From Myxococcota bacterium (lineage in GTDB: Bacteria; Myxococcota_A; SURF-8): DNA of 64,000 nt. The stretch spans positions 2,752,001 through 2,816,000 of the forward strand of contig OZ223209.1 in the NCBI GenBank assembly GCA_965140415.1, read 5' to 3'. This document shows, in pieces, positions 38,689 through 57,312 of the stretch; the stretch's first letter is position 1, and each line of letters begins with the position of its first letter. Position numbers and translations under genes: made by a program. Below the pieces are notes generated by a model, which saw only the letters and a list, made by a program, of their open reading frames with translations, had not been told where the DNA came from and did not search any database.

Positions 38689-38881
38689 TGCACCTCAATT
38701 GCCACATGAGATTAACCGAGAACGTAAAACAACCTTTCCCATCCTAGTCACAATCCCTTACAGGTCAATCGGAAAAATCGAAAAATTGGTAACGTAAACA
38801 AACTTCGTCATGGCAAATAGTAATCGTTGACGCTAGATGAGAAAGAGAGCTAAAGTAAAATGCAAAGGAGGTAGATGGCAT

Positions 38882-40357
38882 ATGGATGCGCCATTGACTT
38901 TGTCGCCAAAACTCTCTTATCAACTTTACGATTCCTGTTGCGTTGCTTTACTGCATGGAACGGGGCTTGTTTTGCGTTTGAATCGAGCCGCTGGGGAATG
39001 GTTCCGAGCGTTGGATCGAGGCGAAAAGACTGCCGCTCAACTCGATTCGAAATTCTCTAACTCATTGCAGAAACTTGGGATTCTTGTCAGTTCGAAGGAA
39101 AGTAAACAGGCGCATTCAGAAGCAGCAACAAAAATGCCTTCTGCTGGCCAGGCACAGGTGCTGGAACAGTTGACGATCGATGCTTGCAAGCTGCGTATTC
39201 CCATTCATGCTCAGCTCGAATTGACGTATCGTTGCCCATTGAAATGCGGGCATTGTTATTTGCGATCGGAGAAGCCGGACAAAGGGAGTGAGTTATCGAC
39301 GCGGCAAATATTTGACTTTCTGGATCAATGGGCGGAGCTTGGCGGTCTGTTTCTACTTTTAACAGGCGGGGAGGTGTTTTTACGTAACGATTTTAAGGAG
39401 ATTTTTACTCATGCACGTCGTCGCCGATTGGCCGTATCGTTATTGACAACGGGTTATGGACAATCGGAGAGCGACTGGTTGCAATTGATTGAACAGGGCC
39501 TGGATCAGGTGCAAATCTCGTTGTATGGCCCGGATGCAGGGACTCACGATGCATTTACGGGTGTTGCGGGATCGTTTGACTATGCCTGGAATGCCTTGGT
39601 GTTACTTAAGCGCTATGGCGTGCAGGTTCGGGCCGCGATTAGTGTGAACCAGAGTAATTTTGCGCTTGTGCAAGCTTTGACAAATCGTTTGGAAGACGAG
39701 GGGATACGCTTTAATTTCAACACGGATATGCTGCCCTTGCGCGATGGTCAACGCGTTTCTGCTGTCGTGCCTTTAGAAAACGATCAATTTGAGACGTTAG
39801 TTCGAATGTATCCCGACCATTGGACGCATGGACATATGACGGGTAAAGCGATGGGGGATCCTCCTTGCAATGCCGCCAGAGCGATGCTGGCGCTAGATCC
39901 ATACGGCAGACTTTCTCCTTGCCTGATGTGGCGTGAGTTTGCAGGTTCGATTGTGGATAATGAGAATTGTGAATTACCTGATAATATTGCTGTTGATAAC
40001 ATGGATAGTGTTGTTGATAACTTGTCTAATATACCGAAAATAAATGATAATACTGAAATTGATATTGTGAATAACTCTGTGGATAACTTTGTGGATAAGT
40101 CTGTTGAAAAGCTTGTTGATAACCCTGTGAATAACTCCTTGGCTCAGCTTTGGAATACGTCGGAAGTGTTTCTTTCCGCTGCGAATTTGTCGATGAAAGA
40201 TTTAGATGATTGTGCATCTTGTGAGCAGCGAGAAGTCTGCCGCAGATGTACTGGTCTGAATATGCAACGCGGTTTCTCAAAGAAAGAGCATTCTTTGGTT
40301 GACTGTTGGCAAACCAATGTGATATACAATATTCAGACTATGAAAGAGGAGAAGTAG
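38882..40357 (+). CDS. Radical SAM/SPASM maturase (PqqE/MftC-like) with a possible N-terminal RRE and an Asn/Asp-rich insertion
   Basis: CPLKCGHC, LTGGE, QISLYG; SPASM CNAA..DPYG.LSPC and CASC..VCRRC..C. Confidence 0.9.
   Translation: MDAPLTLSPKLSYQLYDSCCVALLHGTGLVLRLNRAAGEWFRALDRGEKTAAQLDSKFSNSLQKLGILVSSKESKQAHSEAATKMPSAGQAQVLEQLTIDACKLRIPIHAQLELTYRCPLKCGHCYLRSEKPDKGSELSTRQIFDFLDQWAELGGLFLLLTGGEVFLRNDFKEIFTHARRRRLAVSLLTTGYGQSESDWLQLIEQGLDQVQISLYGPDAGTHDAFTGVAGSFDYAWNALVLLKRYGVQVRAAISVNQSNFALVQALTNRLEDEGIRFNFNTDMLPLRDGQRVSAVVPLENDQFETLVRMYPDHWTHGHMTGKAMGDPPCNAARAMLALDPYGRLSPCLMWREFAGSIVDNENCELPDNIAVDNMDSVVDNLSNIPKINDNTEIDIVNNSVDNFVDKSVEKLVDNPVNNSLAQLWNTSEVFLSAANLSMKDLDDCASCEQREVCRRCTGLNMQRGFSKKEHSLVDCWQTNVIYNIQTMKEEK
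39952..40134. repeat. Cluster of about ten co-oriented DnaA-box-like 9-mers inside the radical SAM CDS
   Basis: TGTGGATAA at 39952, 40078, 40090; TGTGAATAA at 40066, 40126; TGTTGATAA at 39991, 40012, 40114; TGTTGAAAA at 40102; TGTGAATTA at 39968. Confidence 0.8.
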
Positions 40358-40360
40358 GTT

Positions 40361-40453
40361 ATGGAAAACCCGACTATCGAAATCGTTGAAGATCTGGAAG
40401 TAACCGACACTGCGGACGATTGTCAATACTGCGCTGGTCGTTCGATCTGCTGA
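40361..40453 (+). CDS. Candidate RiPP precursor peptide MENPTIEIVEDLEVTDTADDCQYCAGRSIC (30 aa)
   Basis: Translated by hand; ATG 3 nt after the rSAM stop codon, AGGAG upstream; acidic leader and a 3-Cys C-terminal core. Confidence 0.75.
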   Translation: MENPTIEIVEDLEVTDTADDCQYCAGRSIC

Positions 40454-40477
40454 TCAGCTTCCAATAATTCCGCTACA

Positions 40478-41488
40478 TTACATTGCTTGATCCGACTGGA
40501 CCTGCACATTGGGAAGTCGTTTATGTAGATTTTCGATTTCTTCCTGTGTTACCTTGGTTTCTGTCACAATCAACGTCTTCAGCATTTTCATGTCATAAAG
40601 CGGGGCAAGGGAAACCACCGGAGTTTTGGCAAGATCCAGATACTCCAGTTCTTTCATGTGGTTGAGCAAGGATAAATCCGTAATCGGAACTCCCCACAGT
40701 TTTAACATCTTCAGTTTCGTAAATGGTTTGAGCATATTCAAGTCCCGCAACGGAGTGTTGCAGAGATCCAGATAGGTAATTCGTTCTGCTATCGGAAACA
40801 ACGGGGACAGATCCGTAATCTGGGTGCTGCAAGTCAATATCTCCGTGATGTTGGGCATTTGAGCTAAAATACTGATGTCTGTAACCGGGCATTGCAGCAG
40901 GTCGATGCGCTTCAACTGTTTCATTTTCAGTAATGGCGTAAGATCTGAAATGTGTGCCATTTTAGCATCTATTTCCGTCAACTTGGATAGACCTATCAAT
41001 GGTGTCAGGTCATGAACGCCAGTCCCCCAGATGTTCAAATACTCCAGGTTTTCCAATGTTGAAAGTGGTGTTAAATCCGTTACGTCCGGAGAGATGCGCA
41101 TGTCGAGGCGGCGTAGGTTTGTCAAACCGGAAAAGAGCGACAAATCTTTCAATCCTGCAAAACCGACAAACATGGAGGTTAACTCCGTGCAGGTTGGAAT
41201 GATCGAAAGATCGGCTTGCTTCATTCTGCCAGAAATCGATTCAAACCAGATCTGCCCCTGATCGGGATGCGCCATCCACCAGTCGTACCAATATTCATCT
41301 CCCCAAGGCGGAACGAAAGCCGCACAGCCGGTTGCTTCTTCTTGCTGCACAGGAATGGCTTCGATATCTACTGGCACCTCTTGAACATTTTGATCTTTTT
41401 GGTGTGCCGTGCTGGATGTTGTGGGGGAACAGGCGCTGAAAAAGAAAACGATCGATAGGAACATCAACAGAGAAAATCGATTCATCAT
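40478..41488 (-). CDS. Internalin-like leucine-rich-repeat lipoprotein
   Basis: Lipobox FSAC; 22-aa repeats L..L.L..T.V.DL.PL. Confidence 0.88.
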   Translation of the reverse strand: MMNRFSLLMFLSIVFFFSACSPTTSSTAHQKDQNVQEVPVDIEAIPVQQEEATGCAAFVPPWGDEYWYDWWMAHPDQGQIWFESISGRMKQADLSIIPTCTELTSMFVGFAGLKDLSLFSGLTNLRRLDMRISPDVTDLTPLSTLENLEYLNIWGTGVHDLTPLIGLSKLTEIDAKMAHISDLTPLLKMKQLKRIDLLQCPVTDISILAQMPNITEILTCSTQITDLSPLFPIAERITYLDLCNTPLRDLNMLKPFTKLKMLKLWGVPITDLSLLNHMKELEYLDLAKTPVVSLAPLYDMKMLKTLIVTETKVTQEEIENLHKRLPNVQVQSDQAM

Positions 41489-56439: not shown

Positions 56440-57312
56440 TTATTCGGCTGCGGAATCTTCTTTAGAATCCGACGGTGCAGCTTCCGCCTCGGCTTTTTCA
56501 GCGGTGGCGTCAGCCTCGGTCTCCTTGCGCGGAGCAACCTTCTTCACAGCAACTTTCTTGCCGCCGATATCACGCTTCTCTTCGCTGATCGAACCGTCCT
56601 TCGCCTTGGCCGGAGAGGTGTCCTTTTGCAGAGCCTGGCCTTCCAAACAGGCGTCGGCCACTTTGCGGGAGAACAGGCGAATCGCGCGAATGGCGTCGTC
56701 GTTGCCCGGAATCACGTAATCCACACCATCGGGATTGCAGTTGGTATCGCAAACCGCGATAACCGGGATACCCAGGGTGTTGGCTTCGTGAACGGCGATT
56801 CTTTCCTTGACCGGATCGATGACGAACATCACGCCGGGAAGGCGACCCATTTTGCGGATACCGGACAAGTTCTTGGACAACTTCTGGCGAAGCTTGTCCT
56901 TCATCATTGCTTCTTTTTTCGTACGAACCGGGTAGTTGCCGTCTTCGAACATCTTTTCCAGTTCGTTCAGGTTGTCGATGGAAATGCGGATGGTGCGGAA
57001 GTTGGTCATCGTACCGCCCAACCAGCGGTTGTTGACGAAAAACATTCCGGCGCGTTCGGATTCCTGCTTGACCACGTCCGCCGCCTGGCGTTTGGTTCCC
57101 ACGAACAGCACGGATTCGCCATCGGCAACGCGATCGACGATGAACTGATACGCTTCGCGGAACATACGCACGGTCTGCTGCAAGTCGATGATATGCACAC
57201 CATTGCGAGCGCCGAAAATGTAAGGTTTCATTTTCGGGTTCCAACGCGCCGTCTGGTGACCAAAATGGACACCGGCTTCCAACAATTCTTTCATTGTGAT
57301 AGGTCCAGGCAT
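56440..57312 (-). CDS. rpsB: 30S ribosomal protein S2
   Basis: [37 protein letters not shown]. Confidence 0.98.

Follow-up and report, generated by a model that had tools for sequence, protein, structure and literature searches.

DnaA-box loci outside the replication origin (oriC) have been described in Bacillus subtilis and Escherichia coli. In B. subtilis, the local density and affinity of the boxes decide whether DnaA is stably bound, and some clusters repress neighbouring genes; the eight stable sites are all intergenic and mostly origin-proximal (Ishikawa 2007, PMC2533591). In vivo, E. coli DnaA prefers pairs of boxes 2–3 bp apart according to chromatin immunoprecipitation sequencing (ChIP-seq), and some DnaA-bound regions are marked as intragenic in the table of that study (Stringer, Fitzgerald and Wade 2024, PMC11317965). 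The E. coli loci datA, DARS1 and DARS2 modulate DnaA from chromosomal sites outside oriC and are described as non-coding (PMC4585315, PMC5010248); datA requires an IHF site and is origin-proximal. An array of DnaA-box sequences that differs from these loci in lying within an enzyme domain was analysed here. It occupies positions 39952–40134 of a 64,000-nucleotide stretch (the window; G000:C1:2752001-2816000) of the single 5,975,757-bp contig of a Myxococcota bacterium (OZ223209.1). The array lies in the gene of a radical SAM/SPASM peptide maturase and is read there as a peptide repeat. The reading favoured here is that this in-frame insert is a real DnaA-binding array, which doubles as coding sequence and is kept at the DNA level; it is held tentatively, at close to an even chance, on the strength of sequence comparison.

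The array resembled the B. subtilis clusters in that dense, closely spaced, high-affinity boxes stood outside oriC. With 10 boxes, five of them perfect, and 3-bp gaps, it was at least as dense as the tabulated B. subtilis sites, and it exceeded the at least four boxes, perfect matches included, by which a cluster of the B. subtilis type is recognized. Unlike those intergenic sites, it was inside an open reading frame (ORF; 38837–40357), was translated as a peptide repeat and stood about 0.3 Mb from the terminus. The E. coli pairs share with the array the co-orientation, the 3-bp gap and often the sequence gagTTATCCACA, which is the reverse complement of TGTGGATAActc. However, these pairs are single and mostly at promoters, and none is described as a six-unit peptide-repeat array. 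Compared with datA, the array was terminus-proximal, not origin-proximal, and had no IHF-like site: the IHF consensus WATCARNNNNTTR, which may not be that of the host, had no match on either strand of positions 39700–40500. The core of DARS consists of three boxes in mixed orientation; all 10 boxes of the array were on one strand, so the array was without the defining feature of DARS. The known chromosomal DnaA control loci (datA, DARS and the Bacillus clusters) are described as non-coding. In the literature searched, no description was found of a DnaA-box array that is read as a peptide repeat within an enzyme domain, although supplements may list intragenic ChIP peaks.

The 12-bp design of the array recurred in arrays that are non-coding. 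A run of TGTGCATAACTC units on the Buchnera plasmid pTrp (NZ_LT635895.1) overlaps only the call of a 47-aa hypothetical ORF, whereas the array described here is coding. The array of the microvirus PQ006258.1, also non-coding, has TGTGGATAACTC and TGTGGATAAGC units and starts from the stop codon of the replication initiator gene, as do the five boxes of a rodent-gut microvirus (L152 1501-1558). The C-Y-Y gaps of the array matched those of these non-coding DnaA arrays.

Anatomy, rarity and lineage of the array

The anatomy of the array, its rarity, its restriction to one lineage, its conservation in one relative and its location in a loop were established directly. DnaA boxes were scored with the pattern TGTGNAWAA, the reverse complement of TTWTNCACA. 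The window contained 10 exact matches compared with 3.9 ± 1.8 expected, and every one of 100 shuffles had fewer. The array accounted for five of the 10 (39952, 40066, 40078, 40090 and 40126, all on the + strand), and one-mismatch boxes were found at 39968, 39991, 40012, 40102 and 40114. All 10 boxes were co-oriented within 183 bp, and the opposite strand of the array had no box with up to one mismatch. Four dispersed boxes (39952–40020, + strand), of which the first was exact and the other three had one mismatch each, preceded a phased core of six 12-bp units (40066–40137, + strand), each composed of a 9-bp box and a 3-bp gap. The last six sites kept the 12-bp spacing exactly; the core boxes were exact at 40066, 40078, 40090 and 40126 and had one mismatch (TGTT) at 40102 and 40114. 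Tandem Repeats Finder (TRF) reported the core as 6.0 copies of a 12-bp unit with 74% matches and the consensus TGTGGATAACTC. Unit positions 1, 2, 3, 6, 8 and 9 were invariant among the six phased units, and positions 4, 5, 7, 10, 11 and 12 were variable. The A+T content was 68–78% over the adjoining positions 39960–40060. About ten co-oriented 9-mers, five exact and six at a 12-bp period, beside an AT-rich stretch had been described in the original prediction, and the box scan, TRF and base composition bore out each of these points. The window's sequence was recovered with 0 differences in three sequencing runs of one study, which may be the source sample and is not independent, and a single contig from those runs covered 39896–40492.

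The reading frame V-D/N-N of the 506-codon ORF was common to nine of the ten sites (the exception was 39968), and the phased core was translated as VNNS VDNF VDKS VEKL VDNP VNNS. The earlier view of a DnaA-box array in dual-coding DNA was supported: the locus is built as a genuine array would be. The array was contained in an in-frame insertion (VDNENC...PVNN; 39953–40135, + strand) of 61 codons, corresponding to 58 alignment gap columns, with a GC content of 0.31 versus 0.48. This agreed with the insertion of roughly 60 residues of VDN/VNN type that had been proposed in the SPASM domain. In the AlphaFold2 model of the maturase, which had a mean predicted local distance difference test (pLDDT) score of 80, the insert followed the SPASM beta-hairpin and preceded the next helix, and insert residues 361–417 had pLDDT values of 26–35 and were without secondary structure. 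The insert is predicted to be a disordered loop; the alignment was shallow at the insert, so the low pLDDT is only weak evidence of disorder.

Phased arrays of this kind were rare. Three exact boxes at a 12-bp period were found in two of 401 genomes sampled from the phylum, one of which was the present genome, and a reversed-motif control gave 0/401. In the second genome (G045), the array was non-coding and faced three TTATCCACA boxes. Exact boxes were not abundant in the present genome as a whole, with 324 in 5.98 Mb, a number not above the composition prediction for the commonest 9-mers. The array tied for the densest 200-bp cluster of the genome (5 exact boxes and 10 with up to one mismatch; the next cluster had 6), and in this genome-wide density check it was equalled only by an intergenic cluster at 3.286 Mb.

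The insert was present in two of 12 aligned sequences, the window protein P0001 and the metagenomic protein P0002. It was absent from 10 of the 11 aligned homologues and from all eight orthologues in the order. In the genomes G001 and G008, only 6 nt separated the two matching segments, hence neither genome has the insert. Whether orthologues lack the insertion had been raised as a check on the original prediction, and outside the genus-level lineage they did (8/8 in the order). No close orthologue was found in any other genome of the 10-genome order. Searches with the insert region in 5.8 billion proteins returned only P0001 and P0002 among proteins of near length and nothing among shorter ones, and a related-locus search of metagenome contigs returned only two loci at 29% identity.

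Constraint on the DNA and on the peptide

P0002 was 80% identical to P0001 overall, and its insert had an identical length without indels. The P0002 insert was compared as protein only, with residue counts taken by eye from the alignment. In the phased units, valine was the same in 6/6, the second residue in 3/6 (always D, N or E), the third in 5/6 (always N or K) and the fourth in 1/6. The fourth residues of both proteins were all S, F, L or P, which are the complete set of YYT codons, and all 18 non-fourth phased residues of P0002 were compatible with TGTG-NAW-AA. At 80% protein identity, neutral sites would be expected to be heavily substituted. Hence, the retention of insert length, phase and residue sets in P0002 argues for selection on the insert.

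The use of GAT/AAT codons had been taken in the original prediction as a sign of selection on the DNA. This held in part: all 10 Asp codons of the insert were GAT, but its third positions were T-rich throughout, inside and outside the boxes (61% T compared with 33% in the rest of the gene). When the peptide was recoded by the codon usage of the genome, 0.36 exact boxes were expected compared with 5 observed, and the third-base composition of the insert itself gave an expectation of 0.89 (P = 0.0006). However, permutation of synonymous codons within the insert gave a mean of 2.74 exact boxes, and the result was only marginal (P(≥5) = 0.047). The stronger arguments for constraint at the DNA level were the pattern of variation among units, the S/F/L/P fourth residue, the AAC/AAG codons at box position 10 and the residues of P0002. 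In the six units, 5/5 consensus-free positions varied versus 1/7 fixed positions (Fisher P = 0.008), and the T to A change at unit position 7 converted D to E with W kept. The fourth-residue codons were TCT, TTT, TCT, CTT and CCT; the third base, which is box position 1, was always T while the amino acid changed. The N/K codon ended in C or G at box position 10 in eight of nine sites, and the other N/K codons of the insert ended in T in five of six (P = 0.011 versus box position 10).

A number of observations weighed against an array kept at the DNA level, and many of them suited an incidental origin. According to this alternative, slippage expanded a DnaA-box-like 12-bp coding unit in a permissive loop; DnaA may bind it, no selection acts on the DNA, and the insert persists as a harmless or mildly useful peptide. 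Such an origin is a serious rival, given somewhat less credence than the favoured reading. The insert begins and ends with VDN/VNN units, a trace expected of slippage. Coding tandem repeats were common in the genome, where TRF detected 805 arrays (47 with a period of 12, 160 of 15 and 152 of 18), and among so many repeats a chance DnaA-like unit is possible in a very large scan. The whole insert was T-rich at third positions, so the GAT/AAT argument is not specific to the boxes, and the within-insert permutation was marginal. Furthermore, copies made by tandem duplication share ancestry, which inflates the apparent strength of the statistical tests. A synonymous GTT codon broke the consensus in two of the six phased boxes. 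The insert was known from two sequences only, and the evidence from P0002 was at the protein level. Moreover, the recognition helix of DnaA in this genome (L022 5789-7288, − strand) was DHATVINA, compared with DHTTV[ILM][HY]A in the four solved DnaAs of E. coli, B. subtilis, A. aeolicus and M. tuberculosis; it differs at two positions, so the exact box specificity is uncertain and may be slightly altered. On the other side, the unit matched the 12-mer of non-coding DnaA arrays and not merely a 9-mer, and the reversed-motif control found no such array in the 401 genomes. The boxes carried AAC/AAG where the rest of the insert carried AAT. The length, phase, box-compatible residues and S/F/L/P fourth residue kept by P0002 also argue against neutrality.

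The remaining contrary observations concerned the peptide. A protein model of V-[D/N/E]-[N/K]-x with x free left a single misfit to the unit variation, as the box model did. The non-box half of the insert was also conserved (20/38 residues, 53%), compared with 15/24 in the phased part, and this is not explained by the boxes alone. A search with the repeat peptide in 1.8 billion representatives returned 16 proteins, and the 12 inspected were long V-[E/D]-[K/R]-[I/P/V] repeats; long tetrapeptide-repeat proteins exist, so such periodicity can be a feature of the protein. These observations bear on the alternative that the V-[D/N/E]-[N/K]-x loop was selected as a peptide serving the enzyme, for example through contact with a metal, with a partner protein or with the precursor, with the boxes as a side effect of codon choice. 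Conservation of the whole insert without indels favoured this alternative, and so did the string VEKLVDNP, which is shared by the insert and the uncharacterised repeat family. It was nevertheless considered unlikely. The AlphaFold2 loop was without secondary structure at its low pLDDT (on a shallow alignment), and 8/8 orthologues of the order, which share the conserved precursor, function in the absence of the loop. The residues S, F, L and P are chemically heterogeneous yet form exactly the YYT codon set. In addition, nonsynonymous changes occurred at degenerate box positions, and no synonymous T/C changes occurred at box positions 1 and 7.

The uncharacterised repeat proteins (P0045–P0060) have an N-terminal membrane anchor, hundreds of V-[E/D]-[K/R]-[I/P/V] residues punctuated by VEKLVDNPxHL...PPK blocks, and a C-terminal module resembling a helix-hairpin-helix. 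In comparison, the insert has only six units, lies inside a radical SAM enzyme and shares no flanking domains with them.

For the favoured reading of a DnaA-binding array, a mechanism can be proposed. From the features above we infer that DnaA may bind the array, that selection may act on its DNA and that the array may have a function. The array would have been placed at the surface of the SPASM domain, in a loop permissive for insertions, and would have grown there, probably by tandem duplication of the 12-bp unit TGTGGATAACTC, in which an extended high-affinity DnaA box would be followed by a 3-bp gap. Two frames of this strand are stop-free, the V-D-N-x frame among them, and TAA occurs in the third. 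Being stop-free, the V-D-N-x frame would make the peptide a by-product, namely a tolerated disordered V-[D/N/E]-[N/K]-x loop. Cooperative binding of DnaA along six sites with 3-bp gaps would be expected. Selection would act mainly on the DNA, holding box positions 1–3, 6, 8 and 9 and the pyrimidine gaps, and the amino acids would drift. Two overlapping sigma-70-like promoter matches (40014–40051, + strand; TTGATA-16-GAAAAT and TTGTCT-18-GATAAT), which are consensus matches only, with 9/12 each, were located in the AT-rich half just 5' of the phased core; the 2.3-kb region had eight such sites compared with 3.1 expected. A DnaA filament would therefore stand inside a transcription unit, about 230 bp 5' of the precursor gene and just 3' of the promoter-like hexamers carried by the insert. 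Depending on the state of DnaA, the filament could stop or adjust expression at the operon's 3' end, or it could repress the promoter borne by the insert. A local effect on expression would be the most likely consequence of the filament; a secondary possibility is that the array, which lies about 0.3 Mb short of the terminus and is replicated late, serves as a sink for DnaA. The full proposal is that a cooperative array settled, together with an AT-rich segment resembling promoters, in a permissive loop of an Fe-S enzyme, that both were selected as DNA and that they link the expression of a precursor of ribosomally synthesized and post-translationally modified peptides (RiPPs), or the late pool of free DnaA, to DnaA status. 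On sequence grounds this is possible, and was judged somewhat short of evenly probable.

If the proposal is true, coding sequence can have regulatory DnaA sites superimposed on it, and the sequence constraints of DnaA sites can dictate a low-complexity loop of a protein. Some odd peptide repeats of proteins would in reality be DNA elements, and a class of intragenic DnaA-box arrays might exist unrecognised in the stop-free frames of the box.

Position relative to the origin and terminus

The gene dnaA was found at 0.149 Mb, flanked by dnaN, recF, gidB and parA. The array, at 2.792 Mb, was separated from dnaA by 2.64 Mb, and the cumulative GC skew reached its maximum about 0.33 Mb beyond the array, at 3.125 Mb. 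This skew was lowest over a flat interval running from about 5.6 Mb to 0.5 Mb and formed a plateau at its maximum over 3.04–3.26 Mb, and the + strand was G- and T-rich from 0.4 to 3.1 Mb. The strand bias of long ORFs was uninformative, and the strands of tRNA and rRNA genes were used instead. The single 16S gene was at 5.22 Mb on the − strand. The tRNA genes were 13+/5− at 0.23–3.14 Mb and 10+/19− elsewhere, with the strand switch between 3.24 and 3.39 Mb. The GC skew and the 16S and tRNA strands thus assign the origin to the same side as dnaA, with the terminus at about 3.05–3.3 Mb. The array was about 0.3 Mb before the terminus, and the host gene was co-directional with the fork.

The original prediction had preferred a regulatory cluster to oriC, on the grounds that rpsB points toward the site and that no dnaA is nearby. 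Both observations were accurate: rpsB was on the − strand (window 56638–57285), and dnaA was 2.64 Mb away. As a single gene, rpsB carries little weight through its orientation; that the site is not oriC was upheld by the cumulative GC skew and the distance to dnaA, which put the array near the terminus. The reading as oriC was rejected on position, since the array was not at the origin skew switch and was far from dnaA, dnaN, gidB and parA.

A wider version of this alternative, in which the array is a second chromosomal origin or a captured fragment or relic of a plasmid or phage origin, was considered highly improbable. An oriC combines DnaA boxes with flanking DnaA-trios and an AT-rich unwinding element (PMC8287927). 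The stretch of 68–78% A+T beside the array would suit an origin, and so would the 12-mer arrays in a plasmid origin region and a microvirus; by eye, no clear NAN run of DnaA-trios was seen, and no formal search was made. The array was inside an intact conserved gene, and dnaA-dnaN-recF and gidB-parA were at 0.15 Mb. The GC skew, the rRNA operon, the tRNAs of the tuf region and the tRNA strand switch all assigned the origin to the dnaA side. No GC-skew disturbance was seen at 2.79 Mb at 200-kb resolution, although none was specifically looked for. A mobile-element origin of the insert was also rejected, because plasmid and phage matches in blastn were confined to the box repeats and covered at most 37% of the query.

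No GATC sites were found near the array. A paralogue of DnaA or Hda near the array was rejected as well: the Bac_DnaA match at genome position 2,734,795 was an IstB/IS21 ATPase fragment. This fragment of 141 aa (G000:C1:2734795-2735088), with a weak Bac_DnaA score, was 57 kb 5' of the array and is probably a remnant of an insertion sequence.

The other top DnaA-box cluster of the genome (G000:C1:3286142-3287000; L020 7142-8000) lies in an intergenic region of about 950 bp between a thioesterase gene and rsgA. It contained eight exact and nine one-mismatch boxes in two convergent arrays and had an oriC-like look, and the skew and the tRNA/rRNA strands place it in the terminus zone opposite dnaA. 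The gap between dnaA and dnaN had two exact boxes only. No DNA homologue of the cluster was found in the other nine genomes of the order. The location of both strongest clusters in the terminus zone raises the question of a role for late-replicating DnaA sites.

Phased boxes elsewhere and the maturase–precursor pair

A scan of one genome per species gave at least 120 stretches with phased triplets in other phyla, and 80 loci with 93 matches were analysed. Among the matches listed, 62 of the 93 phased triplets were without a spanning open frame of at least 150 aa, and many loci had 8–18 boxes within 300 bp. The units in these matches were typically TGTGGATAAC followed by TC, CC, TT or TA, and the arrays among them overlapped real coding sequence at gene ends only. 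At L079 1229-2704, a dnaA ORF runs on through downstream boxes as ...PVDNYVDKYVDN. In a Brevibacillus Sua5/YwlC ORF (L095 2414-3646), the boxes precede the domain by about 25 codons. In a Chryseobacterium ORF, which may be one gene or two, they separate a PAP2 from a DSPc domain.

A triplet of canonical boxes with gaps of 2 and 4 bp was syntenic between the present genome (G000:C1:230876-230908; L021) and the sister genus (G001:C2:1484466-1484498; L158). It was intergenic, upstream of a gene pair whose proteins (414/425 aa and 799/865 aa) were 39–41% identical. Its presence in both genera indicates that canonical boxes are conserved in the family. At 81 kb from dnaA, the triplet is a candidate for a conserved DnaA operator or the true oriC.

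Many tandem repeats of the genome had GAYGGYGAY-type units, which are coding repeats of Asp-Gly-Asp resembling pentapeptide repeats.

The host gene (38837–40357, + strand) is an ORF of 506 codons, from which the 491-aa protein P0001 was called with a start at 38882. Pfam Radical_SAM matched the maturase with E = 6e-16, and the NCBIfam families of radical SAM/SPASM maturases matched its N-terminal half only, every one below its cut-off. The radical SAM motif CPLKCGHC (CxxxCxxC) was present. This motif and the Cys of the SPASM clusters were invariant across the 12-sequence alignment, with seven further Cys besides CPLKCGHC. The Pfam SPASM model was listed for most orthologues and not for P0001 or P0002, in which the domain is split by the insert. 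The Cys motifs, the SPASM clusters and an adjacent precursor gene together fit a radical SAM/SPASM RiPP maturase.

The Cys-rich, precursor-like gene of 30 codons (40361–40453, + strand; MENPTIEIVEDLEVTDTADDCQYCAGRSIC) begins 4 bp past the maturase stop and is about 230 bp downstream of the array. The peptide matched no NCBIfam or Pfam family, so it looks like an undescribed RiPP family. Small ORFs with a DDCQYCAGK..C end followed the orthologues in G001, G004 and G008, three other genera of the order, which indicates a conserved maturase–precursor pair. In all, the maturase was directly followed by a 30–34-aa peptide with an acidic leader and the ending DDCQYCAGK(S/T/R)xC, and this pair was found in four genera of the order.

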